A DNA stretch of 64,000 nt from a virus (IMGVR_UViG_3300042556_001330:397-64396), one strand, 5' to 3'. Positions 33,045 to 53,139 are shown, counted from the stretch's first letter. Notes: a model not told the origin generated them from the letters alone. Translations and numbers: made by a program.

Positions 33045-33719
33045 ATGCCAATCTCATTTTCAAAAGGATTTAGTATATTGCCTACCATAATAACCAATGG
33101 ATTATTACTTCAATTAGATGCAAATAATTCAACAAGTTATCCTGGTAGTGGAACAACGGTTTTTGATTTAACCAATTCGTATAATCATACATTGACTGGT
33201 GCTACATTTAGCACATTGAATGGAATAAAATGTTTTGATTGCACATCAGGAAATAATAGAGTTGTTGTAAATGGAACAGGCCCAACTTTACCAACAACAG
33301 GATACACCTATGTAACTTGGGCAAGATTGATAAATAATAATTCCGGATATAGAACATTACTTTATACAAACTCACCTAAATACACACCAATTACTATTCC
33401 TAATGGAACAAACACATTAGGATATTGGGATAGTGCATTTAGAAGTTCAACATTTGACCTTACATCTTTTGTCGGGGTTTGGACTCAATATGCGGTAGTT
33501 GGAGATAGTGTATCTCAAACATTCTACATAAATGGTTCACAAGCAGGAAATACAATTGCTTTCGGTTCAGGTGGAAGAACACATTGGGGGTGGGGTAATA
33601 ATGATACCGCCGGTCAACCTTTTGGGCATGTTGCAAATCTTTATTTGTATAATAGAAAATTATCGATTGCAGAAATAACACAAAATTATAATGCAATAAA
33701 ACCGACTTACGGATTATAA
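33045..33719 (+). CDS. LamG/ConA-like lectin-domain protein
   Basis: GLLLQLDA.N..SYPGSGT..FDL...YNRKLS..EI.QNYNA. Confidence 0.8.
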   Translation: MPISFSKGFSILPTIITNGLLLQLDANNSTSYPGSGTTVFDLTNSYNHTLTGATFSTLNGIKCFDCTSGNNRVVVNGTGPTLPTTGYTYVTWARLINNNSGYRTLLYTNSPKYTPITIPNGTNTLGYWDSAFRSSTFDLTSFVGVWTQYAVVGDSVSQTFYINGSQAGNTIAFGSGGRTHWGWGNNDTAGQPFGHVANLYLYNRKLSIAEITQNYNAIKPTYGL

Positions 33720-33741: not shown

Positions 33742-34215
33742 ATGGCAAGTTTAATAAGATTAAAACAAATAGAGAGTGGTTCAGCACTTCAAACATCGGC
33801 TGAAATTGGTACTGATTTTTCACAATCGGTAATTGATATCATACAAGATAATGTAGCGGCTACTTTACCTGATGGAGTTGTATCGGGTTCATCTCAAATA
33901 TTTATTACGGGGACAATTGGATATAATGATATAGCAACGGATTTAGAAGTAGCAGTTATAAGTTCATCTTTATCTGCATCACAGGTTTTAATATCTTCAT
34001 CAATAAGTTCTTCAATTGCAGCAACATTGAGTGGAAGTGTATTATCAGTAACGGCATTAAGTCAGTCGGTGAGTGCAAGTTTACGAGTTATAACTACATC
34101 TTATACAACAACTGCATCTTTCCATTCTTACACCGCATCTTTAGGAGATACATTTGCAACCGACATAGAAGTTTATCTTACTGCATCAAATATTATTGAC
34201 CAGGGTGAGTTTTAA
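33742..34215 (+). CDS. Short Ser-rich fibre linker ending in IDQGEF
   Basis: IRLKQI N-terminus; Ser-rich coil; C-terminal DxGxF. Confidence 0.65.
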   Translation: MASLIRLKQIESGSALQTSAEIGTDFSQSVIDIIQDNVAATLPDGVVSGSSQIFITGTIGYNDIATDLEVAVISSSLSASQVLISSSISSSIAATLSGSVLSVTALSQSVSASLRVITTSYTTTASFHSYTASLGDTFATDIEVYLTASNIIDQGEF

Positions 34216-34225
34216 TTAAAAATTT

Positions 34226-34234
34226 ATATTTATA
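34226..34234 (+). promoter_or_regulatory. Putative late promoter motif ATATTTATA
   Basis: Recurrent intergenic motif. Confidence 0.55.
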
Positions 34235-34263
34235 CATAATAAAGTAAATTAAGAATAGTATAG

Positions 34264-36321
34264 ATGGCTCAATTAATACAACATAAAAGGGGTGCCTTAG
34301 AAAGATTATCCAATATTACAGGTTCCCTGAAAAAGGGTGAAATCTTAATTGTAACCGGTTCATCTAATATTACATCTTCAAATGGTTCATCTATTGTATT
34401 TGCAGCAACTGAAAGTGGTTCTGTTCAAGCTACTAATAGATTTATAATAGGTAGTTCGGCACCAAATGAATTTCCAACATCGACTTATGGTGGTTTAGTA
34501 AACGGAGTTCCTTATTACGATAGTGGTAGTGGAACTTTATATTTGTTAGGAAATGATGGTAATACCCCAATCAACTTAACAGGTAACATTAGTACATTTA
34601 GTGCATCGGTGGCAACATCATTTTCGGCGAGTCAAGCTTCTCAAAATTTATTAAGTGCAAGTGTTGCGAGTGTAACTGGTGATTTTAGTTCTTCGGTAGC
34701 AACTTCATTTAGTGCAAGTCAAGCTTCTCAAACGGCATTAAGTTCATCTATAAGTCAAACTATTGGTTCTTTAAGTTCTTCTATTTCACAATCAATTATT
34801 GATGTAGTAAGTGCATCATTGAGTAGTTCTTTATCTGTGATAGCAACCGATATTGAAATATCAGTAATAAGTTCATCTCTGTCCGCATCACAAGAATTAA
34901 TATCTTCTTCTATAAGTGCATCAATTGCATCAACTTTAAGTGGAAGTGTGGCATCAATAAGTAGTTTGAGTTCATCAGTAGCAACATCAATTAGTGCAAG
35001 TAATGCAAGTATAACAACATTAAGTTCTTCTATTTCACAATCTATTGTTGACATAGTAAGTGCATCATTGAGTAGTTCTTTATCAGTTATTGCAACCGAT
35101 TTTGAAGTAGCAATAGTTAGTGCATCATTATCTTCATCACAAGAATTAATATCTTCTTCTATAAGTGCATCAATTGCATCAACTTTAAGTGGAAGTGTTG
35201 CATCAATTACAAGTTTAAGTTCATCGGTATCAGCTTCATTGGCAAGTTTGAGTGCAAGTAGTGGATTTATACAATATGTAACAAATAGTGTTCAAAATCT
35301 AACAGGAATAGAAGTTGCAGATTATAGTTCGGATGTTGCAGTAACTTTTGTGAATGGAACATTAAAATTTATATTTGGAACACCTGCAACACCAACATCG
35401 GTAGCGGCATCTATAACTGGATTTGTATCTGACAGATTTAATAATGTAACAGACAACTATACAGTTAATGCAAGTTGGAACAATCAGGGGTATACATTGG
35501 TAAGTGCATCACTTTATGAGGGAAGTGCATTATTAACACAAGTTGGTAGTGGAACAACTTTAACATATAATACAACAACATCGGGTTCTCATACATATAG
35601 ATTAGAATACACAGCTAGTTCTCCATTGGATAATAGTTTATATAAAACATCAACTACAACAACGGGAACAGTTTCTAAAACTAACCCAGCGTCACCAACA
35701 TTAACACCAACTGCAACAATTCAATTAGGAGTTGGTTCTAATCAAATTGAACAAGGTGCAACGGGTAGTATTTCTTTTGTATCATCTTCTGCAAATCCTT
35801 CTAATGGTTGGAATTTGACAAGTGTGACAACAAACGTTGCAACCCCATATTTTGTAACGGGTTCGGCAACAGGTTCTACTTCAATTAGTATAACTGCAAC
35901 TGCAAACTACGCGTCTCCTACTGGTGAGAATATTCCTGATACTACAACAACATCAACTACAACTACTACATATACTAAGATTAGAAGTTTAAGACATGGA
36001 GCAAGTTCGGCAACATCATTCACTGCCGGAGAATTGGAAAATATTAGTATATGGGATACAACATTGGGTGGAACAATAGGAACGATTGTAAAAGGAACAA
36101 CAACTGCAAGTGGACAAAGTGTAACAATTAGTTGGACTGGTGATAAATTCCATTATATTGTATTTGATTCGGCAAGAGCAAACTTAACAAACATCACAAC
36201 AAGTGGATTTGGAGTATTGGGTCAATTTACATTAAGTACGGTTGGACAATATAAAGTTTACAAATCAAACACACTACAAGCGGGTGGTGCTGGAAGTAGT
36301 ATAACATATACATTAACATAA
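34264..36321 (+). CDS. Ser-rich fibre protein with Thr-rich Ig-like C-terminal region
   Basis: MAQLIQHKRG N-domain paralogous to the 36814 ORF; internal repeats. Confidence 0.7.
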   Translation: MAQLIQHKRGALERLSNITGSLKKGEILIVTGSSNITSSNGSSIVFAATESGSVQATNRFIIGSSAPNEFPTSTYGGLVNGVPYYDSGSGTLYLLGNDGNTPINLTGNISTFSASVATSFSASQASQNLLSASVASVTGDFSSSVATSFSASQASQTALSSSISQTIGSLSSSISQSIIDVVSASLSSSLSVIATDIEISVISSSLSASQELISSSISASIASTLSGSVASISSLSSSVATSISASNASITTLSSSISQSIVDIVSASLSSSLSVIATDFEVAIVSASLSSSQELISSSISASIASTLSGSVASITSLSSSVSASLASLSASSGFIQYVTNSVQNLTGIEVADYSSDVAVTFVNGTLKFIFGTPATPTSVAASITGFVSDRFNNVTDNYTVNASWNNQGYTLVSASLYEGSALLTQVGSGTTLTYNTTTSGSHTYRLEYTASSPLDNSLYKTSTTTTGTVSKTNPASPTLTPTATIQLGVGSNQIEQGATGSISFVSSSANPSNGWNLTSVTTNVATPYFVTGSATGSTSISITATANYASPTGENIPDTTTTSTTTTTYTKIRSLRHGASSATSFTAGELENISIWDTTLGGTIGTIVKGTTTASGQSVTISWTGDKFHYIVFDSARANLTNITTSGFGVLGQFTLSTVGQYKVYKSNTLQAGGAGSSITYTLT

Positions 36322-36336
36322 ATAGAAGGATAAGAA

Positions 36337-36717
36337 ATGGCAATTATATTACCTGGTGGATTTAACATAACAAACAATGAACCTGTTGATGCTAGAATGA
36401 GTTTAGCAGACCAGTCAGCACGTTATGCATTATCATCGGCTAATGTATATGAGGGATTACAAGTTTATCAAAGAGATAATAATACAATTTGGGTATTAAC
36501 TGATACTACAAATGTTGGAAATTCAAATGGTTGGACACAATTGGTAATAGGTAGTTTAGAAGGAAACTTACCAAGTGGTGTTATAAGTAGTTCTCAACAA
36601 GTAATTGATATTATATTAAATAACTTTACTCAGTTTACACAATCAATTGATAACACATTTGCAACCGACCAGGAGTTGTATGTTACATCTTCGAATTTGG
36701 ATGCAGGAGAATTTTAA
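36337..36717 (+). CDS. Short fibre adaptor ending in LDAGEF
   Basis: PVDAR...YEGLQVY N-domain; C-terminal FATD.E.Y.T.S..D.GEF shared with the 33742 ORF. Confidence 0.65.
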   Translation: MAIILPGGFNITNNEPVDARMSLADQSARYALSSANVYEGLQVYQRDNNTIWVLTDTTNVGNSNGWTQLVIGSLEGNLPSGVISSSQQVIDIILNNFTQFTQSIDNTFATDQELYVTSSNLDAGEF

Positions 36718-36813
36718 TATAATAATAAAAAATATATAGAACAAAATCGGGATTAGATAGTAAAACTAATATTTATTACCGAATAACCTTAATTAAGAGA
36801 ATAACATTACAAT

Positions 36814-39800
36814 ATGGCACAAATCATTAGACACAGACGTGGTAGTTTAGAAGCCCTTTCGGCAGCAACCTCATCGTTTCAAAAAGGTGAATTAATAATC
36901 GTATCGGGTTCGTCAAACATTACCTCAACCAATGGTTCAGGTATGGTGTTTGCAGCTGTAGAAAGCGGTTCAATACAAGCAGTAAATAGATTTTTAGTAG
37001 GAACAAATGCACCAAATGTATTTAGTTCTTCTGCTTATAATGGGTTAGTTAAAGGTGTTCCTTACTATGCAAGTGGTAGTTCAACTTTATACTTACTTGG
37101 TTCTGACAAAAATGATATTCCAGATTTAACGGGTAACATTACTAACTTTAGTTCATCAGTTGTAACTTCATTCTCGGCAAGTAATGCAAGTATAACAGCA
37201 TTATCTGCTTCGGTTGCATCGGTAACTGGTGATTTTAGTTCTTCAGTAGCAACGTCATTCTCTGCAAGTAATGCAAGTTTAGTTGCTTTATCTGCTTCAG
37301 TTGCATCGGTAACAGGTGATTTCAGTGCTTCAGTTGCAACTTCATTCTCAGCAAGTTCTGCAAGTTTAACTGCATTATCTGCATCAGTTGCATCAGTAAC
37401 AGGAGACTTCAGTGCTTCAGTTGCTCAAACATTTACAACTCAAAGCCAAAGAATTTCTTCATTAGAATCATTTAGTGGTTCACAATTAACTCAAAATAGT
37501 GATTTAGCAACTATTACAGGTTCTTTAATTAGTTCTGCATCAACTGCAAAATCTACAAATGATACACAAGATGGTAGATTAACTAATATTGAATCATTTA
37601 GTGCAAGTGTAAACACATCAGTTTCTAACTTAAATTCAACAACTGCAAGTTTAAATACTTCAGTTGCAAATATAAACTCATTCACATCTTCTCAATTAAC
37701 TCAAAATAGTGATTTAGCAACTATTACAGGTTCTTTGATTAGTTCTGCATCTGCAGCAAAAACTACAAATGACTCACAAGATGTTTCAATAACAAACTTA
37801 AACTCATTCAGTTCTTCTGTTAATACAAAGATGACTGAAATTGGTGTTGTAAGTGGAAGCTTGATTTCATCAGCATCGTCTGCAGCAATCGCAATTGCAA
37901 ATTTAAATGCAAATAGTGGTTCTTACGCATTATTAAGTGGTTCAAATGTATTCTATGGTAACCAAATAATCACTGGTTCTGTTTATGTAGCATATGACTT
38001 AATAGTACAAGGTTCATCTTCATTACAATACATTACTGCAAGTCAAGTTGATTTAGGAACAAATACAATTATCCTTAATAACGACTCCCCTGCGGTTAGA
38101 TTTGGTGGTATATCAGTAGTAGATAGTGGTAGTAATGCAGGAGCAAGTGGTTCATTATTCTGGGATTCATTAAATAATAACTGGATTTACCAACACCCAT
38201 CAGGTGGTGCTGAATCTGGAATGACAGCTATATTGATATCTGGTCCTAAAAATAGTGGTTCAATGGGTGATGAAGCTCATATCACTCCAGGTAAAATTAT
38301 GGTTGCAGTTGGTGATGACCACATTGGTGATTCAATCATTACACAAGCAACTGATAATAGTAAAATTTCAGTAGCGGGTGACATAATCGTAACTGGTTCA
38401 GTAAACGCAACTTCGTTTAATGGTACAATTAACTCAACAAATGGTGTAGTTAGTGGTTCATCTCAAATAACAATTTCTGACACAACTGGATATACAGACT
38501 TTAGTGGTTCAATATCAGCATCATTTGCATCAGTAATTGCAAACGTAGGTAGTGGTGTAGGAGTTTCAATAACAAACTTAAACTCATTCAGTGCTTCTAC
38601 ATTAACTAGATTATCTAATATAGAATCATTTAGTTCTTCTGTTGAAAGTAAATTAACTGAAATAGGTGTAGTAAGTGGTTCATTGATAGCTTCAGCATCA
38701 ACCGCTAAGACTACAAACGATACACAAGATGGTAGATTAACAAATTTAGAAGCAACTTCTGCAAGTGTTAACACTTCAGTAAGTAATTTAAATTTAACAA
38801 CTGCAAGTTTAAACACTTCAGTAACAGCATTAAATACTTCATCTGCATCTCAACAAGTATCATTAGATAATTTAAATACATTTAGTGGTTCTACATTGGG
38901 TAGATTAACTAATTTGGAATCAACTTCTGCAAGTGTAAATACTTCTGTATCGGCTTTAAATAGTTCATCTGCTTCTCAACAAATTAGCATTGACGCTTTA
39001 AATACGGTAAGTGGTTCAAATTTAGGTAGATTATCTAATTTAGAAAGTACATCTGCAAGTGTTAATATCTCTATAACTAATATAAACTCATTCACATCTT
39101 CGGTTGATACTAAGATGACTGAAATAGGGGTAGTTAGTGGTTCATTATTTGCATCTGCATCAACTGCAAAATCTACAAATGATACACAAGATGGTAGATT
39201 AACAAACTTAGAATCTAAATCTGCAAGTGTTGATACATCAATAACTAATATAAACTCATTCACATCTTCAGTTGATACAAAAATGACTGAGATTGGAAGT
39301 GTTACAGGTTCATTGATTTCTTCAGCATCAGCAGCAAGTATTTCAATAGCAGCTTTAAACTCATATACTTCTTCAAATACATCTACAAACGCATTAAATG
39401 CATTTACTGCATCTGCAAATGAAAGATTTACAGAAATTGGTATAGTTAGTGGAAGTTTAATATCTTCAGCATCAGCTGCTAAATCTACAAATGATACACA
39501 AGATGGTAGATTAACAAACTTAGAAAGTACTTCTGCAAGTGTTAATACATCTATTTCTAACTTAAACTCATTCAGTTCTTCTCAATTAACTCAAAATTCA
39601 ACATTAGCAACTTATACAGGTTCAGTTGAAACAAGATTGACTGAGATTGGTGTTGTTAGTGGAAGTTTAATAGCTTCGGCATCAACTGCAAAAACAACAA
39701 ATGATACACAAGATGGTAGATTAACAAACTTAGAAGCAACAACTGCAAGTTTAAACATTTCAGTTACAAATATCAATTCGTTTACATCATCTGCAACTGG

Positions 39801-40806
39801 TAGATTATCTAACTTAGAATCTACATCCGCAAGTGTAAATACTTCAATATCCGCATTAAATAGTTCATCTGCATCTCAACAAGTTAGCATCGATGAGTTG
39901 AATACATTTAGTGGTTCTACATTGGGTAGATTATCACAATTAGAAACTGCAAGTGGAAGTGCAAAGGTTGCAATTGGTGAATTGAATAATTTTACATCTT
40001 CATTCAACCAGGCAATTATTTTAAGTGGTCAGAATGTTGAAATACAAGGTGATTTTACCGTAAGAGGTACATCAACTATCGTAGATTCTACAACGATTCA
40101 ATTAGGTGATAATATTATAGAATTAAATGGCACAGGAGCAGCAAATGGTGGTTTGATTGTTAAAGACCCAACTGCACCTTCAACATTATCTGGTTCTTTA
40201 TTGTGGGATACTACAAATGATTATTGGAAAGCTGGTACATTTGGAAACGAATCTAAAGTATTGGTAGCAGGTGGTGATAGTGTAGTAAGTGGTTCATCTC
40301 AAATTACAATTTCGGATACTACTGGATTTAGTACATTTAGTGGTTCAATTGCAACTTCATTCTCTGCAAGTGCAGCAAGTGTAACATCATTATCTGCGAG
40401 TGTAGCGAGTGTAACTGGAGACTTCAGTTCATCAGTAGCAACTTCATTCTCACAATCAGCATATAACTTAAATCAATTATCTGCAAGTGTGGCAAGTGTA
40501 ACTGGAGACTTTAGTTCATCGGTAGCAACTTCGTTCTCCGCAAGTGCAGCAAGTGTAACATTATTAAGTTCATCTTTCTCAGCATCACAAGCAGTACAAG
40601 ATGGTAGATTGGGATTATTGGAAATATCAACTGGAAGTTTAAATTCATTTACTTCTTCAATTGATACTACAATCAAAACTAAATTAGACGCTGAAACCGT
40701 TGTAAGTGGTTCATCTCAAATTGACATAACTGCAACTACCGGATTTACAACATTTAGTTCATCAATTGAGACAAGAATATCAATAATAGACGGAGGAACA
40801 TATTAA
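36814..40806 (+). CDS. Long Ser-rich coiled-coil fibre protein (1330 aa)
   Basis: MAQIIRHRRG N-domain; many QDGRLTNLE and EIGVVSGSL repeats; ends IDGGTY. Confidence 0.78.
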   Translation: MAQIIRHRRGSLEALSAATSSFQKGELIIVSGSSNITSTNGSGMVFAAVESGSIQAVNRFLVGTNAPNVFSSSAYNGLVKGVPYYASGSSTLYLLGSDKNDIPDLTGNITNFSSSVVTSFSASNASITALSASVASVTGDFSSSVATSFSASNASLVALSASVASVTGDFSASVATSFSASSASLTALSASVASVTGDFSASVAQTFTTQSQRISSLESFSGSQLTQNSDLATITGSLISSASTAKSTNDTQDGRLTNIESFSASVNTSVSNLNSTTASLNTSVANINSFTSSQLTQNSDLATITGSLISSASAAKTTNDSQDVSITNLNSFSSSVNTKMTEIGVVSGSLISSASSAAIAIANLNANSGSYALLSGSNVFYGNQIITGSVYVAYDLIVQGSSSLQYITASQVDLGTNTIILNNDSPAVRFGGISVVDSGSNAGASGSLFWDSLNNNWIYQHPSGGAESGMTAILISGPKNSGSMGDEAHITPGKIMVAVGDDHIGDSIITQATDNSKISVAGDIIVTGSVNATSFNGTINSTNGVVSGSSQITISDTTGYTDFSGSISASFASVIANVGSGVGVSITNLNSFSASTLTRLSNIESFSSSVESKLTEIGVVSGSLIASASTAKTTNDTQDGRLTNLEATSASVNTSVSNLNLTTASLNTSVTALNTSSASQQVSLDNLNTFSGSTLGRLTNLESTSASVNTSVSALNSSSASQQISIDALNTVSGSNLGRLSNLESTSASVNISITNINSFTSSVDTKMTEIGVVSGSLFASASTAKSTNDTQDGRLTNLESKSASVDTSITNINSFTSSVDTKMTEIGSVTGSLISSASAASISIAALNSYTSSNTSTNALNAFTASANERFTEIGIVSGSLISSASAAKSTNDTQDGRLTNLESTSASVNTSISNLNSFSSSQLTQNSTLATYTGSVETRLTEIGVVSGSLIASASTAKTTNDTQDGRLTNLEATTASLNISVTNINSFTSSATGRLSNLESTSASVNTSISALNSSSASQQVSIDELNTFSGSTLGRLSQLETASGSAKVAIGELNNFTSSFNQAIILSGQNVEIQGDFTVRGTSTIVDSTTIQLGDNIIELNGTGAANGGLIVKDPTAPSTLSGSLLWDTTNDYWKAGTFGNESKVLVAGGDSVVSGSSQITISDTTGFSTFSGSIATSFSASAASVTSLSASVASVTGDFSSSVATSFSQSAYNLNQLSASVASVTGDFSSSVATSFSASAASVTLLSSSFSASQAVQDGRLGLLEISTGSLNSFTSSIDTTIKTKLDAETVVSGSSQIDITATTGFTTFSSSIETRISIIDGGTY
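37201..37440 (+). repeat. 87-bp (29-aa) tandem repeat, about 3 copies
   Basis: ttatctgc.tc.gttgcatc.gtaac.gg.ga at 37201, 37288 and 37375 (LSASVASVTGDFS); the same unit recurs near 34651 and 40390-40560. Confidence 0.8.
37561..39725 (+). repeat. Dispersed intragenic repeat GATACACAAGATGGTAGATTAAC x5
   Basis: Exact copies at 37561, 38719, 39181, 39493 and 39703, each within a longer repeated block. Confidence 0.8.
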
Positions 40807-40834
40807 TAAAAAAATAAAGAATAAATAGAAATAT

Positions 40835-41395
40835 ATGGCAACAAATAATCCAACTTCATCGATTTTACTGAAACGTTCAGGTGTCGCAGGTTCAGTACCT
40901 ACAACCACATCGTTACAGGTAGGTGAAATCGCGTTAAACACCTATGATGGTAAAGCGTTTTTACACAAGTCTGGTTCAACCGATGAAGTAGTAGAAATCG
41001 TAGTTGCCGGTGCAAATGTAACCGGGTCAATTAGTCTTACTGGAGCAGTTAGTGCATCAATAGTATCTGCGTCTACTTTTATTGGTAATGGTTCTCAATT
41101 GACAGGTGTAACTGCATCAATGAGACCAGATGATTTCGATTTTAATTCGGAACCATTTGCAGGAACAATTGGATATATTCAAGGTAGTGGTTCTCTTTAC
41201 AAAGTAGCAACTACTGAAAATGCAATTGATTTTAGATACAACGATGTAACAATTGCAACTATTACAACTGCAAACGGATTTAGTGGTTCATTATTCGGAA
41301 TTGGTGATGTGTTACAATTTAGTGGTTCGGTTCACAATAGATTATATCAATTAGAACTTTCAGCATCATTTGGACCAGATGCAGGTCAATTCTAA
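40835..41395 (+). CDS. Short fibre protein ending in PDAGQF
   Basis: ILLKRSG..G.VP...L..GEIALNTYDGK N-domain. Confidence 0.7.
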   Translation: MATNNPTSSILLKRSGVAGSVPTTTSLQVGEIALNTYDGKAFLHKSGSTDEVVEIVVAGANVTGSISLTGAVSASIVSASTFIGNGSQLTGVTASMRPDDFDFNSEPFAGTIGYIQGSGSLYKVATTENAIDFRYNDVTIATITTANGFSGSLFGIGDVLQFSGSVHNRLYQLELSASFGPDAGQF

Positions 41396-41416
41396 AATTC
41401 AATAAAATTATAATAG

Positions 41417-41440
41417 AAACCCCTCATAGTAGGGGTTTTT
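41417..41440 (+). terminator. Rho-independent terminator
   Basis: AAACCCCT-CATAGT-AGGGGTTT followed by TT. Confidence 0.75.
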
Positions 41441-41511
41441 CATTTTATAATATATTTATGTTTGTAGTATATACTACCTTGTTGTTAAATAACTTTAAAT
41501 AAATAGGCCAT

Positions 41512-44385
41512 ATGGCATCAATTGTTCAACTGAAACGCTCTGCGTTATCGGGAAAGGTACCTGATACAGGTTCATTAAATTTAGGAGAATTAGCTGTAAA
41601 TACTTACGATGGTAAGATTTACTTTAAAAAGTCGGGTTCAATTGAATCGGTTGAAAGTGTAGTAACAACAAATTCGGTAGTAACTGGTTCTATTAGATTG
41701 GAAGGAACTGGTTCGTTTGGTTCATTAAAAGTAAACGATACACTTACAGTTAATCATGGTGTTAGTGTAATAAGTGGTTCTTTGGGAATCACATCAGATT
41801 TGACTGTTTTAGGTGCAGTTAATGCAAGACAATTCAATATTTCTATAATTTCATCTTCTACATTATTTGAAAGTGGTTCATCTAATTTCGGTAATAGTTT
41901 TGATGATACACATACATTTACAGGGTCAGTAAACATTACGGGTTCATTTTTATTAAACGGACAAGAAGTAGGTGGTGGAACAACATCGGGTTCATTTACT
42001 GGTTCATTTACTGGAGATGGTAGTGGATTGAGAGGGGTAGTTAGTGATGATTTACCAATTGATGGTTGGGATTATAATTCAAATAGTTCTGCATCTATTA
42101 GTGAATTTAATGTAACATCATCAAAATATTTAATAGATTTTCAATGGGAACAAGAAGTTGGAACCGCTGTTGGTTTAAAGGCATTCCTTTCAAACACAAC
42201 TGGTAGTTCACAAATTGTTCCAACGGAAGAAGGTATTAAATTTATTGTAGGAAATCAACAAGTTGCATTAGTAGGGCCAAATGGTATACAATCTGTGGTA
42301 CCTGCAGGAACTGTAAGTGGTTCATCTCAATTGACATCTTCATACGACCAAAGATATGTTTTGAGTGGAAGTATTACTCAAACAACTTGGGATAATATTG
42401 CAAGCAAACCTTCCGGAATCATAAGTGGTTCGTCACAATTAACATCATCGGTATTAGCCACAACTGGTTCTAATTTATTTGTAGGAACTCAAACTCATAG
42501 TGGTTCAATTATACCTGCAACGGATAATACATACGATTTGGGGTCACCTACATATCAATGGAGAGATATATATGTTTCATCTGGTTCACTTTATATAGAT
42601 GGAACAAAAGTTTTAAGTTCAACCAATCAGGAATTACAAATCACAACCGATGTAGGTCAATCAATTAAGATTTTAGAAGCAGGAAGTGATAGTATTATTT
42701 TACAATCTGCAGATGGTGATATTCAATTAAAAACATCTGGTGGAGGTAATTTATTATTTGACCCAACAACTGGTTTAATTGATGTTAGAGGAACATTACA
42801 AATACAAGATGGAAATAAAGTAACATCTTCAGGAGGAAATGGTGTTGTTTTTGGAAATAATATAGTAGTAAGTGGTTCATTAGAAAGTACTGGAAATATA
42901 AATGGTGTAAATATATCAACATTTAGTTCTTCAGTTGTAACACAAATATCTACAATACAAACTAAAACAGGAAGTTTTGCAACAACGGGTTCTAATACTT
43001 TCTATGGTACACAAACATTTAGTGGTTCACTTTATGTTGCAAATGACTTAATTGTACAAGGTAGTTCCTCAATTCAATATATTTCGGCATCATCAGTATC
43101 AATTGGAACCAATATTGTTCAACTAAATACGGCAAACCCATCGGTTAGATATGCTGGTTTAAGTATAATAGATAGTGGTTCAGTTGGAGGTTCTGGTTCA
43201 TTCTTATATGATTCGGTACAAGATGAATTTATATTTGTACATAGAGGAAATGGTGCAAATGTAACATCATCTCATTTTGTATTAGGACCTGAAACATACG
43301 ATGATTTGGGAAATGAAATATATCTTACAAATAATAAATTACCGAAAGGAACTGGCAAAGAACATTTAGTTGATTCAAATATTACCGATAATGGTACATT
43401 GATTAATTTGGGTTCAAACACAACAATAACAGGTACATTAGTTGCAAGTGGAACAACATTGGTTAGTGGTTCATCACAAATAACTTTTAGTGGAATAAGT
43501 TCACTTCCTACATTAGTAAGTGGTAGTTCTCAAGTTGATGTAATGTCTACAACAAATATTGCAAGATTGGCAACCACTGGTTCAAACACATTTATAGGTA
43601 ATCAAATAATAAGTGGTTCAAGTACTTTTAGAAATAACTCAAATGGTGCAAGTGTATCAATTGGTGGAACTGCATTTGGTATAAGAATAGATAATGGTGG
43701 AACATTTAGTAGTGGAAGGTCTACTATTTATGGAGTAGATAATACATTTGTTGGTTCATATCAACCATTGGGATTACAAGGTTCTGTTGTATATATCGGA
43801 ACATCTAATACCGATATTATGACTGTTGCATCAACGGGTGCATCGGTAGTTGGAAATATATCATTGGGAGCATCAAATACATCATATGTCGGCCCATCTC
43901 AATATGGTGCACTTATGATGCCAAGAGGTGGTATATTATTCTCAAATACCAATAGCCAAAACCAAATGTATATGGTATCAAATGCATATTTGAATGGAAG
44001 TGGTGTATGGTCGTATAGAAACTCAGGACAACCGGCCGGATGGATGGCCATCGATAATGGTGGATTTAGTGTTGCATTGGCCGGTAATGGAACTGCAGAT
44101 AGTGCAATAACATTTACTTCACCACTTTCGATATCAAATGCCGGAGTTACAACATTTGGTGGTAATGTAATACCTAATACAAATGGTACCAGAGATTTAG
44201 GTTCGGCATCGGCAAGATGGTCTACGATTTATACATCGGATTTATCATTAAATAACGGAATTGGTGATTGGACAATTGTAGAGGGTGAAGATGATTTATT
44301 CTTATACAATAATAAAAAAGGAAAAGTTTATAAATTTGCTTTAACCGAAGTTGACCCAAATGTGGCAACTCCTAAAAAATCATAA
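41512..44385 (+). CDS. Tail fibre protein
   Basis: VQLKRS...GELAVNTYDGK N-domain; YDLGS...W repeats; C-terminal TSDL..DWTIVEGEDDLFL. Confidence 0.78.
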   Translation: MASIVQLKRSALSGKVPDTGSLNLGELAVNTYDGKIYFKKSGSIESVESVVTTNSVVTGSIRLEGTGSFGSLKVNDTLTVNHGVSVISGSLGITSDLTVLGAVNARQFNISIISSSTLFESGSSNFGNSFDDTHTFTGSVNITGSFLLNGQEVGGGTTSGSFTGSFTGDGSGLRGVVSDDLPIDGWDYNSNSSASISEFNVTSSKYLIDFQWEQEVGTAVGLKAFLSNTTGSSQIVPTEEGIKFIVGNQQVALVGPNGIQSVVPAGTVSGSSQLTSSYDQRYVLSGSITQTTWDNIASKPSGIISGSSQLTSSVLATTGSNLFVGTQTHSGSIIPATDNTYDLGSPTYQWRDIYVSSGSLYIDGTKVLSSTNQELQITTDVGQSIKILEAGSDSIILQSADGDIQLKTSGGGNLLFDPTTGLIDVRGTLQIQDGNKVTSSGGNGVVFGNNIVVSGSLESTGNINGVNISTFSSSVVTQISTIQTKTGSFATTGSNTFYGTQTFSGSLYVANDLIVQGSSSIQYISASSVSIGTNIVQLNTANPSVRYAGLSIIDSGSVGGSGSFLYDSVQDEFIFVHRGNGANVTSSHFVLGPETYDDLGNEIYLTNNKLPKGTGKEHLVDSNITDNGTLINLGSNTTITGTLVASGTTLVSGSSQITFSGISSLPTLVSGSSQVDVMSTTNIARLATTGSNTFIGNQIISGSSTFRNNSNGASVSIGGTAFGIRIDNGGTFSSGRSTIYGVDNTFVGSYQPLGLQGSVVYIGTSNTDIMTVASTGASVVGNISLGASNTSYVGPSQYGALMMPRGGILFSNTNSQNQMYMVSNAYLNGSGVWSYRNSGQPAGWMAIDNGGFSVALAGNGTADSAITFTSPLSISNAGVTTFGGNVIPNTNGTRDLGSASARWSTIYTSDLSLNNGIGDWTIVEGEDDLFLYNNKKGKVYKFALTEVDPNVATPKKS

Positions 44386-46633: not shown

Positions 46634-49600
46634 ATGGCAGCTATATTTCAATTAAGAAGAGGTTCGGGTTCAGTATCTTTAGTGGATGGTGAATTATATG
46701 TAAACAAAGGTATAGATTCTTTACAATATGCCGTAGGTGATAGAGAGATTACTTTAGCTAAGTTAAATGAACTTAATACAGGTACATTAAATTTAAACGG
46801 AGGAATTTCTGCATCCGGAGATATTACTGCATCTAATGCATATATTAGTGGTAATATTGTATTAGGTGGAACGATTACAATTGGTGATACTACAAATGAT
46901 AGTGTTATTTTTAATGCGGATTTAAGTTCTTCAATTATACCTGACGCAACTAGTACATACGATTTGGGTTCTACATCTAAAGTATATAGAAATATATACG
47001 CGAGTAATATATCAGCATCAGCGTTTACTGGTTCTCTTTTTGGTATGGGTGACCCGACATCATTTAGTACATCGGTAGATACTAGATTAGATTATTTAGA
47101 AGGCCCTTTTAGTACATCCGTTGATAGTAGAATGGATTTATTAGAAAACGCAATGAGTGGTTCTAAGAGATTATATGTTTCTCCGGAAGGAAATGATACT
47201 AATACTGGTACTCAACAAAGTCCATTTAAAACAATTAAGGCAGCAGTTGAATCGTTGGGTTCAGCGATTTATACAAATGTAAAAAGATATACAATATTTG
47301 TAGGTAGTGGTGAATATACTGAACAAAACCCAATAGTAGTTCCTCCTGGAGTTTCTATTGTTGGTGATACATTGAGAACAGTAAGATTAACCGCTGCAAA
47401 TCCAACAAAAGATTTCTTCCATTGTCACGATTCAAACTATTTTTATGGTTTGAGATTTTTAGACTTAAGGAATCCCGCATTTGCATTTTCATTTCCATCA
47501 TCTACCGCAACCGGTTCTATTAGTGCAGGTGGTATTGGTTCTATTGGTTTGGTACATTCAATGACGGGATATACAGATGGAAATAATCAGGATTTGGGAA
47601 TTATTATAGAAGGACCTGATAATAGTGGTAGTATAGCAACTGCAACTGCAAATGTTGTTGGTGGTGTTATTACTCAAATAAATGTAGTAAATGCCGGAAC
47701 AAACTATTCGGCAAACGAAAAACCACATATTTCAATACCTGCACCTGTTGCACAAAGACCAGTAATTACAACATCACCATATGTTCAAAACTGTTCTTCA
47801 ATCACAGGTCCATTTAATACATCCGGTGTTAAAGTTTTACAAGCTTTACCATACGATGAAGCAACTTTTAATATTGATGAACAAGGAGCCGGTGGTGGTA
47901 TAAGAATAGATGGTAATTTAGTTCACCCACTATCACCATTAGAATCATTTGTAGCGGATGCATTTACACAAGTTAATCAGGGTGGACCTGGTCACTTAGT
48001 AATTAACAAAGGATATGCACAATTCGTATCTTGTTTTACTACATTCTGTACTTATGGTTTTAAAGTAGCAAATGGTGGTTTTGCAAATATTTCAAATTCG
48101 GTAATAGATTTTGGTAAATATGGTTTAGTATCTAAAACTTATTTCCCAACAACATATAATACGGGTTCATCTTTAGAAACAAAAACTTCACAAGTAAGTG
48201 GATTTATTATAGATGAAAATGGAGCAGGTTATACTGGTTCAATTGCAGGTGTAACAATTTCAGGTGGTGGTGCAAGTGTTCAAGCAACTGCAGAAGCAAC
48301 TGTAAATGCAAATGGTTCAATTGATGAGATAGTATTGTTAACCGGAGGAAGTGGATATACATCACAACCATCTGTAACAATAGATTCACCAACGGGACCT
48401 GGAGCAATACAAGCTACAACGGTTGCAGGTAAAGCATTAATTACGGGTGTTACTGAAATGTTAATGTCATTAGAAAGTGGTAGTAGAGGTGTTGATATTT
48501 CTTCTAATATGATTTTGAATGGTGTTGATTACTTAGTAACTGATGTAATAGATGTAAGTGGTCAACCAAACCAAAGAAGAATAACAACTTACCCAGCACC
48601 TCCTTCAATTACAACAAACGACCAAATTAAATTTCACCAATTATCAAACATCTCAACAGGTGGATTGGTAATGGAATATGTTGGTAGTGGTGTAACATAT
48701 AACGCACTTCCAAAATTTGGTGGAGTTCCAATTAGAACAAGAGAAATAAATGAATTTGCACCTGGTAGAGTATTCTATTCAACGGTGGATAATATTGGTA
48801 ATTTAAAGATTGGAGATTTCTTTGCGGTAAATCAATTGACTGGAGAAGTTACAATTGATGCAAACTCATTTAATTTATCAGGTTTAAATGCAATAGGGCC
48901 ATTTAGAAGAAATGGAGTTGCGGTAGGTGTGGTATTACAAGAAGTAAGTAATAATGTAACTTTATTAAACTCACAGGGTTTATATGGTGAAGACACCACA
49001 CCAACACAATATGCAGTTAAAGAATATATTGATGTAATAAGTCAATCATTTGATAGTAGAGTGGATTCATTAGAACAAACTGCAATTGACTATGATGGTA
49101 GATTAGATTCTTTAGAAATTTCATCTGCATCTGTTAATTCGTTTACATCATCTACAAATGGTAGATTAAATAATTTAGAATCTAAATCCGCAAGTGTAGA
49201 TGTTTCAATTTCGAATTTACATTCATATACTTCATCATTAAATAACGCAATACAATTAACGGGTTCAACTGTTTCATTCTTAGGAAATATTGTAGTGTAT
49301 GGTACTCAATCTGTACTTAATTCAACTAATTTACAAATTGGTGATAATTTAATTTATTTAGCAACTGCATCGGTTGCAAATATTGACTTTGGTATTATCG
49401 GACATTATAATGATGGTACAAATAGACATGGTGGTGTTTTCAGAAGCGGAACAGATGGTGCATGGAGAGTATTTAAAAATTATGAACCTGAAATAAGTGG
49501 AACTATTAATTTGACAGAAACAACTTTTGCATATGCTGACTTTTACGCAAATGCATTAAGTGCATCAACATTAAGTGGTATTGGAAATGTAACAACATAT

Positions 49601-51310
49601 TCTACATCCGTAGATAGTAGGTTGGTTAGTTTACAAACAAATTCAACAAATGTTGATACTTCTATTTTAAACTTAAATCAATTTAGTGCAAGTGTAACAT
49701 CTTCATTAGAAAAAATATATCAAACAACATCTTCATTAAATACTACAACTGCAAGTTTATATACTTCGGCATCTTTAATGACGGCATCGATTGTCTCATT
49801 AACATCATCCGTTGTTGTATTACAAGATTTTAGTGGAAATGTTAATAGTAGATTTACAACTTTAGGAACTTATACTGGTTCAGTCGATAGTAGATTTACA
49901 ACTTTAGGAACTTATACGGGTTCGATTGAAACAAGATTGACTCAAATCGGAGTAGTAAGTGGTTCATTGATAACAACTGCATCTAACCACGAACAAAGGT
50001 TAGGACAATTAGAAAATAAATCTGCAAGTGTAGATACATCTATAACAAATATAAATACATTTACTCAATCGGTTGATGGTAGATTTACAACATTGGCAAC
50101 ATATACTGGTTCTGTCGATACTGATTTAAATAAAATACATGAATCAACTGCAAGTTTAAATTTATTTACTGCAAGTGCATATGTATCATTCTCATTGATG
50201 ACCGCTTCAATTGAAGACCACGAAGAAAGAGTTGCTTATTTGGAAGGTATTGGTGGAATTACTGGTGGCAACCCATTAACACCATTGAATCAATTTTCTG
50301 CATCTGCAAAAATTTCAATTGCAAATTTAGAATCATATACATCTTCTGCAAATACAAGATTAGGCCAAATTGAATCATATACATCTTCTGCAAATACAAG
50401 ATTAGGCCAAATTGAATCATATACATCTTCTTTAAAGAATGCAATTACTGTAACTGGTACCGATGTATCAATTGCTGGTAACTTAAGTGTATTGGGTACT
50501 ACAACGATAGTTGATACTACGACATTATCGATTAAAGATAATATTATTGAATTAAATTATGGTGCATCTCAAACTACTGCTGGTATTTATGTAAAAGATG
50601 CAACAGGAACATCAACCACTTCTGGTTCTCTAATTTGGGATTCGGCAAATGGTGCAGATTATTGGAAAGCAGGAAAATTGGGAAGTGAAGCAAAAGTATT
50701 GACCGATGGAATGGGTGTAATTTCTGGGTCGGGTCAATTAACAAACTATGAAACTACGGGTAGAGGAATCGTTTCGGGTTCATCTCAAATAAATGTTGAA
50801 TCAACAACCGGTGATATTACATTAGGAACTAGAACATTTGGTAACTATGTTGCGTCATTGGTTGCGGGTACGGGTGTAATTTTATCTAATAATGGTGGTG
50901 AAACAGCAACTCCAACAATTGCAATCGGACAAAGTGTTGCAACTTCAGCATCACCAACATTTGCAGGTTTGACTATCAACGGAGCAATTACTGCAACTGG
51001 TGATATTACCGCATTCTTCACATCGGATGAAAGATTAAAAGAAAATATTCAACCTATCACGGATGCATTATCAAAAGTAGAAAATATTAGTGGTAATGAG
51101 TATGATTGGAAAGATGGATTTGAAAATGTTCATAATAAAAAGGGAAATGATGTCGGTGTAATTGCACAAGAAATTCAAAAAATACTTCCACAAGCAGTAA
51201 TAGAAAGAGACAATGGATATTTGGCAGTTAATTACGAAAAAATAATTCCACTATTAATTGAATCTATAAAAGAATTATCGGCAAAAATAGATAGATTGGA
51301 AAAGAAATAG
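46634..51310 (+). CDS. Large tail fibre/spike with beta-helix-like domain, coiled coil and C-terminal peptidase S74 intramolecular chaperone
   Basis: YVSPEGND...PFKTIKAA...G.Y.E..P..VP.GVSIVGD; GSGYT repeats; TSDERLKENI...GVIAQE...V.YEK. Confidence 0.82.
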   Translation: MAAIFQLRRGSGSVSLVDGELYVNKGIDSLQYAVGDREITLAKLNELNTGTLNLNGGISASGDITASNAYISGNIVLGGTITIGDTTNDSVIFNADLSSSIIPDATSTYDLGSTSKVYRNIYASNISASAFTGSLFGMGDPTSFSTSVDTRLDYLEGPFSTSVDSRMDLLENAMSGSKRLYVSPEGNDTNTGTQQSPFKTIKAAVESLGSAIYTNVKRYTIFVGSGEYTEQNPIVVPPGVSIVGDTLRTVRLTAANPTKDFFHCHDSNYFYGLRFLDLRNPAFAFSFPSSTATGSISAGGIGSIGLVHSMTGYTDGNNQDLGIIIEGPDNSGSIATATANVVGGVITQINVVNAGTNYSANEKPHISIPAPVAQRPVITTSPYVQNCSSITGPFNTSGVKVLQALPYDEATFNIDEQGAGGGIRIDGNLVHPLSPLESFVADAFTQVNQGGPGHLVINKGYAQFVSCFTTFCTYGFKVANGGFANISNSVIDFGKYGLVSKTYFPTTYNTGSSLETKTSQVSGFIIDENGAGYTGSIAGVTISGGGASVQATAEATVNANGSIDEIVLLTGGSGYTSQPSVTIDSPTGPGAIQATTVAGKALITGVTEMLMSLESGSRGVDISSNMILNGVDYLVTDVIDVSGQPNQRRITTYPAPPSITTNDQIKFHQLSNISTGGLVMEYVGSGVTYNALPKFGGVPIRTREINEFAPGRVFYSTVDNIGNLKIGDFFAVNQLTGEVTIDANSFNLSGLNAIGPFRRNGVAVGVVLQEVSNNVTLLNSQGLYGEDTTPTQYAVKEYIDVISQSFDSRVDSLEQTAIDYDGRLDSLEISSASVNSFTSSTNGRLNNLESKSASVDVSISNLHSYTSSLNNAIQLTGSTVSFLGNIVVYGTQSVLNSTNLQIGDNLIYLATASVANIDFGIIGHYNDGTNRHGGVFRSGTDGAWRVFKNYEPEISGTINLTETTFAYADFYANALSASTLSGIGNVTTYSTSVDSRLVSLQTNSTNVDTSILNLNQFSASVTSSLEKIYQTTSSLNTTTASLYTSASLMTASIVSLTSSVVVLQDFSGNVNSRFTTLGTYTGSVDSRFTTLGTYTGSIETRLTQIGVVSGSLITTASNHEQRLGQLENKSASVDTSITNINTFTQSVDGRFTTLATYTGSVDTDLNKIHESTASLNLFTASAYVSFSLMTASIEDHEERVAYLEGIGGITGGNPLTPLNQFSASAKISIANLESYTSSANTRLGQIESYTSSANTRLGQIESYTSSLKNAITVTGTDVSIAGNLSVLGTTTIVDTTTLSIKDNIIELNYGASQTTAGIYVKDATGTSTTSGSLIWDSANGADYWKAGKLGSEAKVLTDGMGVISGSGQLTNYETTGRGIVSGSSQINVESTTGDITLGTRTFGNYVASLVAGTGVILSNNGGETATPTIAIGQSVATSASPTFAGLTINGAITATGDITAFFTSDERLKENIQPITDALSKVENISGNEYDWKDGFENVHNKKGNDVGVIAQEIQKILPQAVIERDNGYLAVNYEKIIPLLIESIKELSAKIDRLEKK
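49845..49923 (+). repeat. 42-bp (14-aa) tandem duplication
   Basis: atagtagatttacaactttaggaacttatac at 49845 and 49887. Confidence 0.8.
50330..50431 (+). repeat. Perfect 42-bp tandem repeat, about 2.4 copies
   Basis: gaatcatatacatcttctgcaaatacaagattaggccaaatt at 50330 and 50372, partial at 50414. Confidence 0.88.
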
Positions 51311-51369: not shown

Positions 51370-53139
51370 ATGGGACTTAAATTTAGACGCGGTACGACCG
51401 CACAACAATCCGGTTCATTAGCATTCGGAGAACCATATGTGAATACCACATTGGGAACATTGATAGTAGGTGGACAAAGTGGAGATATCGTATTATCAGC
51501 AGGAGGTACAGGAAGTACCGGAAACTTCGGAGCAATTTCAGGTTCTGGATTAGATATTACCGGAAATGCAAATATTGCGGGTAATTTAACATTGGGTGGT
51601 ACTATTACAATCGGTGATAATTCATCTGATAATGTAGTTGTAAACGCTGATTTAAGTTCTTCAATTATTCCAAACAATGATAACTCATTTGATTTGGGTA
51701 GTACATCATTTAGATATAGAGCAATTCATGGTACAAATATACATGGTGCTATAAATGCAACAAATGGTGTAGTTTCCGGTTCATCACAAGTGATTGGAAT
51801 ATTGGATTCATTAAATACATTTAGTGGTTCTCAATTAACTCAAAATAGTAATTTAGCAACTATCACCGGTTCATTGATTTCAACTGCAAGTTTAAATGTT
51901 GGAAGATTAACTGCAATTGAAGCAGTTAGTGGAACTTTTGCAAGAACCAATTCAACAAATATATTTAACGGAAATCAAACTGTAAGTGGTTCATTATATG
52001 TAACACAAGATTTGGTAGTCGGTGGTTCTTCATCGATTCAAAATATTAGTTCTTCTAATTTAGTAATTGGAACGGCATTTGTAACTTTAAATACATCAAC
52101 TCCATCATCTAGATTCGCAGGATTACAAATAATAGATAGTGGTTCATCTGGAGGTTCTGGTTCATTCTTATATGACGCAGTACAAGATGAGTTCATATTT
52201 ATCCACAGAGGAAATGGTACGAACATAACATCATCTCATTTCCTATTAGGTCCTGAAACTTATGATAACTTAGGTAACGAATCTTACTTAACAAATAATA
52301 GAGTATCAAAAGGAACTGGTAAGGAACATTTGGTTGATTCAAATATTACAGATGATGGTTCATTGATTACATTGGGTTCAAATACAACAATAACCGGTAC
52401 ATTGGTTGCAAGTGGAACAACATTAGTATCAGGTTCATCTCAAATAAACGCAACTGCAACTACAAACTGGTCAACCGGTATTAAAACAAGATTAGATGCG
52501 GAAACCGTTGTTTCTGGTTCTAAAACAATTAGTGGTATTACATTGGGTTCTAACTTAGCAACTTTGACAATTGGTACCGGATTAAGTGGAACATCTTATA
52601 ATGGTTCAACCGGTGTAACAATTGCAAATACGGGGGTAACTTCAATTACAGCAGGAACGGGTGTAAGTAGAGATAGTGCAACAGGTACAGTAACAATTTC
52701 AATAGGACAAGCAGTAGCAACATCTGATAACGTAAGATTTGCATCTATTGGTGTTGGTATGGCTGCAAGTGGAACATCTGGTAGAATAGACGCAGCAAAT
52801 GATATTGTGGCATTCTCAACTTCGGATGTTCGTTTGAAAGAAAATATCAAACCAATCGAAAATGCATTGGATAAAATTTCTAAGATTAGTGGTAACACAT
52901 ATGATTGGAGAGCTGAATTTAAAGATGTTCATGGATACGAAGGAAATGATGTGGGTGTAATTGCACAAGAAGTTGAAGCAGTATTACCACAATTAGTTCA
53001 AGACAGAGACAATGGATATAAGGCAGTTAAATATGACAAATTAGTTGCATTATTGATTGAAGGTATTAAAGAACAACAAACACAAATACACAATTTAACT
53101 TTAGAAATTGAAAATCTAAAGAAGAACAATAGCTTATAA
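51370..53139 (+). CDS. Tail fibre with C-terminal peptidase S74 chaperone
   Basis: LKFRRG N-domain; TSDVRLKENI...GVIAQEVE..LP...V.YDKL. Confidence 0.82.
   Translation: MGLKFRRGTTAQQSGSLAFGEPYVNTTLGTLIVGGQSGDIVLSAGGTGSTGNFGAISGSGLDITGNANIAGNLTLGGTITIGDNSSDNVVVNADLSSSIIPNNDNSFDLGSTSFRYRAIHGTNIHGAINATNGVVSGSSQVIGILDSLNTFSGSQLTQNSNLATITGSLISTASLNVGRLTAIEAVSGTFARTNSTNIFNGNQTVSGSLYVTQDLVVGGSSSIQNISSSNLVIGTAFVTLNTSTPSSRFAGLQIIDSGSSGGSGSFLYDAVQDEFIFIHRGNGTNITSSHFLLGPETYDNLGNESYLTNNRVSKGTGKEHLVDSNITDDGSLITLGSNTTITGTLVASGTTLVSGSSQINATATTNWSTGIKTRLDAETVVSGSKTISGITLGSNLATLTIGTGLSGTSYNGSTGVTIANTGVTSITAGTGVSRDSATGTVTISIGQAVATSDNVRFASIGVGMAASGTSGRIDAANDIVAFSTSDVRLKENIKPIENALDKISKISGNTYDWRAEFKDVHGYEGNDVGVIAQEVEAVLPQLVQDRDNGYKAVKYDKLVALLIEGIKEQQTQIHNLTLEIENLKKNNSL

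Follow-up and report, generated by a model that had tools for sequence, protein, structure and literature searches.

Adjacent tail-fibre genes of an uncultured T4-like phage pair a D-x-G-x-aromatic C-terminus with a gp37-type N-terminal domain

Gene pairs in a tail-fibre cluster

The uncultured virus fragment IMGVR_UViG_3300042556_001330 encodes a series of tail-fibre proteins in which a gene ending in a short D-x-G-x-F/Y motif (the tag) is followed by a gene that starts with a conserved domain (the N-domain). The stretch analysed here, 64,000 nucleotides (nt) long and spanning fragment positions 397-64396, is referred to as the window, and all positions are counted from its first letter. It represents nearly all of the 64.4 kb fragment, which has a G+C content of ~32% and an estimated completeness of 32%, and its plus strand carries every long gene. 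The long proteins encoded between 33.7 and 53.1 kb are tail-fibre proteins according to Pfam and PHROGs (coiled-coil families and tail-fibre PHROGs), and the window is that of a tail-fibre cluster (Table 1). Within it, g36814 has coiled-coil stretches, g40835 matches PHROG tail-fibre N-termini, and g46634 and g51370 score 63.7 and 65 bits with the C-terminal intramolecular chaperone Peptidase_S74 (Pfam cut-off 22), whose start, SD.RLKENI, is visible in both; g33742, g34264 and g36337 have no family in Pfam or PHROGs.

Table 1. Genes of the fibre cluster that carry a tag or an N-domain, and an intergenic hairpin (aa, amino acids; E values from the N-domain profile hidden Markov model, HMM)
Feature	Position	Strand	Description	N-terminus	C-terminus
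g33742	33742..34215	+	157 aa, short fibre segment		tag, IIDQGEF (tag codons 34198-34212)
g34264	34264..36321	+	685 aa, fibre	MAQLIQHKRG; N-domain residues 1-44 (34264-34395), E 8e-13	
g36337	36337..36717	+	126 aa, adaptor	MAIILPGGFNITNNEPVDAR, second joint type	tag, NLDAGEF (36700-36714)
g36814	36814..40806	+	1330 aa, fibre shaft	MAQIIRHRRG; N-domain residues 1-44 (36814-36945)	tag, IIDGGTY (40789-40803)
g40835	40835..41395	+	186 aa, connector	MATNNPTSSILLKRSG (ILLKRSG); N-domain residues 1-49 (40835-40981)	tag, GPDAGQF (41378-41392)
Terminator-like hairpin and T run	41415..41440	+	between connector g40835 and distal fibre g41512		
g41512	41512..44385	+	957 aa, fibre	MASIVQLKRS; N-domain residues 1-44 (41512-41643)	ATPKKS, no tag
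g46634	46634..51310	+	1558 aa, fibre; no tag gene upstream	FQLRRG; N-domain residues 1-37	Peptidase_S74
g51370	51370..53139	+	589 aa, fibre; no tag gene upstream	LKFRRG; N-domain residues 3-40	Peptidase_S74

In a crude gene call, the pattern D.G.[FY] ends four of the 58 plus-strand open reading frames (ORFs), and in each of the four cases the next ORF carries the N-domain. The tags, in gene order DQGEF, DAGEF, DGGTY and DAGQF, are separated from the domains that follow by 48, 96, 28 and 116 nt, always on the same strand and with the tag gene first. When the tag was back-translated to a DNA pattern with a TAA stop, there were four matches on the forward strand, none on the reverse strand and none with a reversed-pattern control; among ten fibre-cluster proteins checked, the motif was found three times internally as against four times at the extreme C-terminus. 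The N-domain comprises ~45 residues with the consensus MAxxIxLKR(S/G)...P..L..GE.A.N..D.K.Y, and its HMM matches residue 1 of six window proteins (g34264, g36814, g40835, g41512, g46634 and g51370; E 3e-23 to 1.5e-9). g33742, the first of the tag genes, gave no significant match to this HMM (E 0.07), with a weak, partial likeness limited to the first 18 residues (MASLIRLKQ); its orthologues with the same C-terminal end occur in loci L005-L010, L027, L029 and L039.

These pairs had been pointed out in an original prediction made from the sequence of the window, and every gene end and start that it quoted was found where it had placed them; it was also right that g46634 and g51370 carry the N-domain with no tag upstream. 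The pairs g33742/g34264 and g36337/g36814 are partly paralogous: the long proteins g34264 and g36814 have 34% identity in an alignment of ~600 residues, and the short ones, g33742 and g36337, have 53% in their last 32. The window's four cases thus amount to about three independent ones, and the evidential weight comes from other genomes.

Pairing of tag and N-domain in other genomes

The pairing was assessed from both of its sides. On the domain side, an alignment of KRS-type N-domains led to 80 IMG/VR loci, in which we counted unique pairs of adjacent ORFs, reading the tag as D.G.[FYW]. A tag was followed by a domain in 74 pairs; six had the tag only, 56 the domain only and 227 neither, such that 74 of 80 tag-ending ORFs precede a domain ORF. 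The corresponding Fisher p of 8e-34 is uncorrected for relatedness of the loci and, because the loci are related, is not a probability of independent events.

The reverse test, which is independent of the domain, used a DNA pattern for IDGGTF followed by TAA, with the permuted IGDTGF plus TAA as a control. The tag pattern was found in at least 120 viral stretches and the permuted one in six. Among the 123 IDGGTF matches listed, 114 have at least 350 nt downstream, and 113 of these close an ORF of at least 60 aa; an N-domain ORF lies within 300 nt after 77 of the 113 ends (75/111 unique), and after none of the six control ends. The 77 unique domains found in this way form 23 single-linkage clusters at 60% identity, and a few of the 36 ends counted as misses are followed by sequences that resemble N-domains by eye (L170, L238). 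Tag ends are thus enriched before N-domain starts across phage genomes in both directions, as the original prediction had expected. Behind the IDGGTF ends of eight loci (L127, L134, L167, L183, L187, L203, L241 and L243) we also noted a small, coiled-coil-looking ORF of 61-95 aa (e.g., MNSEIDVNLLVTVYNERINSL...) with no N-domain gene; its product may be an alternative partner or an assembly factor.

Genome contigs of bacteria and archaea had 121 matches, from which came 83 ends of ORFs of at least 60 aa, 51 of them with the domain next. The contigs include ones from Clostridia, Paenibacillus, Bacteroidota, Pseudoalteromonas, Limnohabitans and one cyanobacterium, and the pairs on bacterial contigs presumably belong to prophages. 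Cultured phages of other morphotypes provide examples. In Vibrio podophage 1.208.B, a product ending in TIDGGAF precedes one that starts MAQTILHKRSS and itself ends in TIDGGSF, just before a start MAQTIKLKTSA; siphophage S-CBS2 has FSGGSF before MSNAIRIKKRAAGG..., which ends in EIDGGTF before MANLIKLRRSAVQG; and Ralstonia jumbo phage RsoM2USA has VIDGGTY before MSNTLLLKRSAVPGK. Podo-, sipho-, myo- and jumbo phages all have examples of the pair. In P-SSM2, an N-domain fibre lacks a tag upstream.

Both elements are tied to the ends of proteins. In loci chosen regardless of the tag, D.G.[FYW] forms the end of 116 of 608 unique ORFs, compared with 57 internal matches in 234,808 positions. A search for fused tag-domain units found no internal N-domain in the 1138 open frames of the fetched loci. 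In a profile search of 1.84 billion representative proteins, 28,322 had an N-domain at E <=0.001 and 10,175 at <=1e-10, and the domain begins at residue 1 in 149 of the best 150 of the 28,322. The exception, P0106 (524 aa), has N-domains at residues 1-45 and 122-177, the second right behind a degenerate tag-like stretch, ITGFTIDAN; judged from its sequence, this single case is likely to be a natural in-frame fusion of two joined fibre segments.

Relationship to the T4 gp36-gp37 joint

The same arrangement exists in the distal half-fibre of phage T4. In the T4 record, gp36 ends in VQDFGYY, a D-x-G-x-Y end, and the next gene product, gp37, opens with the same domain, including GELAINLKD; gp37 residues 1-47 match the N-domain HMM with E 1.3e-17. 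We picked five further Straboviridae down the identity ranking of matches to the gp37 N-terminus and read the tag on the annotated gp36 connector. It is kept in all six: DFGYY in T4, IDFGEF in PEi26, QDFGLY in Thanatos-1, IDFGTF in JEP8, IDFGSY in Matisse and LDYGTF in Lazarus. Of two cyanophages sampled likewise, RN05-S has the tag plus one extra residue (DGGTFE at the end) and S-8S53 has no tag.

In T4, as described in the accessible parts of PMC3004832 and PMC9603124, gp36 trimers bind the N-terminal region of trimeric gp37, which starts the distal half-fibre. The accessible text of PMC3004832 further describes a linear fibre with an ordered assembly, in which gp36 (23 kDa) and gp37 (109 kDa) are separate proteins once the fibre is assembled. 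A 2026 cryo-EM preprint, in its accessible part, models (gp36)3-(gp37)3 at low resolution only, using predicted models (10.64898/2026.03.06.709160).

The window resembles T4 in that an upstream protein ends in D-x-G-x-aromatic and the next gene starts with a homologous N-domain; in T4, the genes are ordered as their products assemble, and each partner is a trimer. The joint occurs once in T4, whereas the window repeats it four times in succession and has two further N-domain fibres that lack a tag. Neither a gp35-like kneecap nor a gp34-like protein was identified in the cluster, where no search was aimed at them. We conclude that the window's pairs are of the gp36-gp37 type and hence not a new system, because this joint is already known in T4. 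The proposal that the pairing had never been described as a system therefore does not hold for the joint; what seems unprinted is its sequence-level grammar. The rule itself, a free D-x-G-x-aromatic end and a gp37/Mtd_N-type cap, and its serial use are apparently undescribed: searches with the motif strings, with Mtd_N plus tail fibre and with gp36-gp37 wording found no description of the motif pair in Creative-Commons PMC and bioRxiv texts. The accessible parts of the RBPseg paper (PMC12143355), the gp34 structure paper (PMC5537660) and a preprint atlas of Klebsiella receptor-binding proteins (10.64898/2026.05.12.724579) do not mention it either.

Relationship of the N-domain to Mtd

Sequence comparison shows homology of the N-domain with the start of T4 gp37 and a relationship with Pfam family Mtd_N (PF18454). 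g51370 is the nearest to Mtd_N within the window, with 25.1 bits and E 1.7e-5 against a gathering cut-off of 26.3 bits; the window's other five N-domains have no Mtd_N match, and the KRS-type domains fall under the Pfam threshold. Among 82 related N-domains, 18 match Mtd_N at E <=0.01 (best 1.3e-16), and one other family is matched by a single member. Sub-profiles of the KRG and KRS types align with each other at 98.7% probability.

In PDB, the KRG profile (A6) finds only Mtd structures (E ~0.01), and nothing relevant came from searching its sequences with the g51370 N-terminus, the KRS profile (A2) or the mixed profile (A1). As far as sequence tells, then, no like complex has been solved, since the PDB profile searches gave Mtd alone. 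The structures concerned are those of Mtd from Bordetella phage BPP-1 (PDB 1YU0-1YU4, 2IOU), and they contain no bound upstream peptide; the N-domain of Mtd appears to belong to the same sequence family as those of the window. Mtd is a receptor-binding protein with a C-type-lectin fold that is diversified by a retroelement; there is nothing alike in the window. In BPP-1 (L251 3438-6125, minus strand), the putative tail-fibre gene bbp9 ends in NIGLADLGGIA, 15 nt before mtd (MSTAVQFRGGTTAQ...). This end appears tag-like with one extra residue, and we treat it as a lead rather than a result.

Predicted contact between tag and domain

The pair g40835/g41512 was used for structure prediction. We co-folded three copies of g41512 residues 1-120 with three copies of the last 60 residues of g40835, each with a 26-row alignment. 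The median score was 0.65 (runs of 0.66, 0.65 and 0.37), and the best of three controls reached 0.01. The mark used for such scores is reached by 58 of 80 solved complexes and by two of 110 mismatched pairs, counts that are only roughly valid here, given our own alignments and the six chains of the model. Agreement between runs extends to at least 41% of contacts, and the partner's predicted local distance difference test score (pLDDT) is at least 39.

In the model, the confident interface is formed by partner residues 51-60, the last ten (the LSASFGPDAGQF region), and domain residues 2-11, 15, 17, 21-22, 26 and 28. The nearest residue pairs are predicted to be domain 6 with partner 56, 8 with 58 and 10 with 60, a progression that would set the tag beside the domain's first strand, in parallel. 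The last four tag residues are next to K8 and R9, K15, P17 and A28 adjoin the terminal F, and E26 of a neighbouring copy adjoins partner residue 57. Among 77 unique domain sequences, the top conserved positions are I5, K/R8, R9, P17, L22, G25, E26 (77/77) and A28, and seven of these eight (5, 8, 9, 17, 22, 26 and 28; not 25) belong to the interface of the model; the aligned tags all have the D and the G. An AlphaFold2 monomer of g41512 residues 1-120 was poor (mean pLDDT 65, and 53-67 across the domain), and a monomer model cannot represent an intertwined trimer.

The co-fold supports binding of the tag to the domain without demonstrating it. Together with the T4 precedent and the two-way adjacency statistics, this one controlled prediction lends support to the idea, put forward in the original prediction along with co-folding as a check, that the C-terminal peptide docks on the next N-domain.

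A proposed segmented fibre with head-to-tail joints

We consider it likely that the window's pairs are non-covalent head-to-tail trimer joints of the gp36-gp37 kind that build a segmented fibre. Each pair would join trimer to trimer as gp36 and gp37 do in the T4 long tail fibre, with the last 6-10 residues of the upstream chain added as a strand along the first strand (~residues 3-11) of the downstream N-domain. The conserved K/R-R pair, P17, E26 and A28 would have as neighbours the free carboxylate and the side chain, aromatic or aliphatic, of the last residue. Such a joint would require that the tag ends its protein and that the domain begins its own. We infer further that the basic pair binds both the Asp and the free carboxylate, and that a joint is a small unit of three tags combined with three N-terminal strands.

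The chain would then run from g33742 to g34264, through a second type of joint (an ITYTLT end to a PGGFNIT start) to g36337, and on to g36814, g40835 and g41512. Such a segmented fibre would have six proteins and 3,441 residues per chain, compared with a total of 2,908 for the four T4 fibre proteins, and g41512 would likely be its distal end because there is no tag at its own end. At the second joint, g34264 ends in AGGAGSSITYTLT, a conserved end type other than the tag, and g36337 starts 15 nt later (window 36280-36396). All 17 unique MAI.LP.GF.IT N-termini from the window and the fetched loci sit a few bases behind an ORF ending in AGG.G.S.TY.L(T/E). The PGGFNIT head is found in relatives on long S74 fibres of 513-1647 aa and in the window on a 126-aa protein with a tag end; this combination of head and tag on one small protein suggests that the adaptor g36337 converts one joint type to the other.

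Several points weigh against this picture. The order of the chain assumes that assembly is linear and follows the genes. The accessible parts of PMC3004832, PMC9603124, PMC5537660 and 10.64898/2026.03.06.709160 contain no atomic structure of the joint between gp36 and gp37 in T4. Beyond the tag, the small tag proteins g33742, g36337 and g40835 show no homology to gp36: the best E with blastp and a profile of gp36 was 0.16, and only the 7-residue end of g33742 aligns. The co-fold covers one pair of 24 possible, one of its runs scored only 0.37, and the partner's own fold is uncertain, with pLDDT <50 in one run. The adjacency statistics ignore phylogeny, and many loci are related. Moreover, 56 of the 130 unique ORFs with an N-domain lack a tag ORF upstream and, among the matches listed, 36 of 113 IDGGTF ends have no recognised domain behind them, so the pairing is frequent, not obligatory.

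The numbers of tags and N-domains do not balance either. There are six N-domains and four tags in the window, and a relative rated 100% complete has five N-domain genes and three counted tags, two that end in F and one that ends in W; the W-ending tag was read on locus L073, from another contig that has this cluster. The excess of sockets over tags looks real, and g46634 and g51370 would have to dock elsewhere or compete for tags. We considered whether self-cleavage by S74 could expose a hidden tag in g46634 or g51370. The cleavage point is, we assume, just before SD.RLK, and the residues preceding it, GDITAFFT and NDIVAFST, do not fit D-x-G-x-aromatic, so the idea was rejected. DLDF(G/N)I ends in relatives were also considered as a variant of the tag; their register does not fit.

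Specificity and competing explanations

The surplus of sockets bears on a reading that accepts the joints but makes the tag generic: every N-domain would accept every tag, the appendage would be branched or heterogeneous, and g46634 and g51370 would compete for the four tags to give mixed distal fibres. The original prediction had instead seen a hint of matched specificity, with GEF tags before HxRG domains and the others before LKRS domains. As a general code this did not hold up: IDGGTF, unchanged, stands before domains of every subtype, with S at domain position 10 in 51, G in 20 and some other residue in six of 77 unique cases. Conversely, N-domains identical to each other can sit behind tags with a final F, I or L (e.g., GPDAGQF in L041 and GPDGGEI in L043), and DAGEF, which precedes the HRRG type in the window, precedes LKRS-type domains in relatives (L013). 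The matching seen within the window itself is explained by paralogy. The varied domains behind IDGGTF, the identical N-domains behind different tags and the excess of N-domains in both the window and the complete relative favour a generic tag. On the other side, the flavour of the tag and the residues before it are characteristic of each joint position from one orthologue to the next, for example RISxIDGGTY always before ILLKRSG and SASFGPDxGxx always before VQLKRSA, as a local specificity code would also give; a code local to the lineage, written in the residues that precede the tag, is possible. The accessible text on the linear T4 fibre and its ordered assembly (PMC3004832) also speaks against mixed appendages, and we think a generic tag rather unlikely.

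Modules are clearly exchanged between these proteins. In L039 (3549-4358), a 269-aa hybrid ORF has an N-domain of the g34264 type and a tagged C-terminus of the g36337 type, and an HRRG fibre follows; as read from its sequence, this is module shuffling that preserves both joint ends.

A second alternative is that the two motifs never touch. The tag would serve trimerisation of its own protein or act as a chaperone signal, the N-domain would dock to the baseplate or another adaptor, and the adjacency would reflect conserved gene order and the boundaries of recombination modules. Clear shuffling of modules, as in the L039 hybrid, fits this explanation, as do the N-domain fibres of P-SSM2 and S-8S53, which have no upstream tag gene, and the 56 of 130 N-domain ORFs without one, which mean that the domain must have other docking sites. 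Synteny by descent alone is insufficient, however, because the adjacency spans podo-, sipho-, myo- and jumbo phages and bacterial contigs, the distance between the two genes can be anything from -1 to 158 nt, and no match to the region came up in a blastn search of the phage collection. In addition, T4 gp36 binds the N-terminal region of gp37 according to the accessible part of PMC3004832, and the co-fold sets the tag on the conserved face of the domain while controls stay at <=0.01. We regard an arrangement without contact as improbable.

Comparison with SpyTag/SpyCatcher and branched systems

The pairing resembles SpyTag/SpyCatcher in that a short terminal peptide would complete a partner's small domain by strand addition, and in that an Asp of the tag and a Glu plus a basic residue of the receiver are conserved. 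It differs in having no conserved lysine, and in a joint that, by analogy with T4, would be trimeric and non-covalent. Position 8 of the domain is K in 59, R in 15 and Y in three of 77 sequences and position 9 is R in 62, and no isopeptide bond is expected because the receiving domain lacks a conserved lysine. A covalent tag/catcher, with a bond between the tag Asp and a domain Lys aided by the invariant Glu, could draw on the invariant D, on E26 and on the frequent K8, which lie close together in the model, but it is very hard to reconcile with the lysine-free basic pair of g36814 (R-R, in HRRG), with the other sequences that have R or Y at position 8, and with the description of gp36 and gp37 as separate proteins in the accessible text of PMC3004832; the term tag/catcher is thus not to be taken in its covalent sense.

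Branched receptor-binding-protein systems (CBA120, G7C and Klebsiella phages) offer another comparison. In these, T4 gp10-like domains and short conserved N-terminal peptides dock the fibres, and fibres or spikes are likewise joined by small dedicated docking modules from neighbouring genes. The domains there are different ones and the geometry is side-branching, whereas the joints proposed here run end to end, from a free C-terminus to a free N-terminal domain.

Implications

The architecture of tail fibres sets which bacteria a phage attacks, and for most uncultured phages it is unreadable from the genome. If a five-residue end and a 45-residue start mark a joint of the gp36-gp37 type, annotators could assign fibre genes to one appendage, and in order; structural work on the T4 distal rod would gain a precise interface, and the N-terminal domain of Mtd-like receptor-binding proteins would gain a proposed role. 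Since 28,322 representative proteins carry the N-domain, the rule would apply widely.

A bolder version is that the D-x-G-x-aromatic end and the Mtd_N/gp37-type N-cap form a universal, largely interchangeable plug and socket of tailed phages. We are doubtful of this. Were it true, the wiring of multi-protein fibres could be read from gene ends alone, and in phages with more sockets than plugs alternative distal fibres would compete, so that one genome would give virions with different host-binding tips.

Other features of the locus

The wider relationships of the phage were read from its tail sheath gene (55977-58187), which has 45% identity with the sheath of Microcystis phage Mel-JY01 and is more remotely related to sheaths of Flavobacterium, Pelagibacter, cyanobacterial and T4-like phages. 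On these sheath relationships we assign the phage to the uncultured, distant T4-like myoviruses. A blastn search of the whole fibre region against cultured phages gave no match.

The hairpin at 41415-41440 is the sole strong intrinsic-terminator-like hairpin of the fibre cluster. The motif ATATTTATR occurs 17 times in the window compared with 8.5 expected, a number that none of 100 shuffles reached, and 15 of the 17 copies are on the plus strand. The sites lie mostly 10-60 nt 5' of gene starts (e.g., 33729, 34226, 41452, 46606, 51311, 54130, 55933 and 58200), a placement that makes ATATTTATR a candidate late-promoter motif of the phage. The T4-type late promoter TATAAATA is absent from the gaps behind the tag genes; it has five matches elsewhere in the window, none of them at ATATTTATR sites.

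Five ORFs of 224-583 aa are interleaved with the fibre genes (33045-33719, 44389-46584 and 54158-55909) and have a common end, YNR.LS..EI..NYN......(G/F)G(L/I/K); they may resemble lectin-like (LamG-type) domains. Finally, a 334-aa ORF (53142-54146; MYDVYYTTGFGNKVGAG...) lies directly 3' of the KFRRG/S74 fibre gene g51370, and a 332-aa counterpart is found behind the orthologous fibre in L013-L026.

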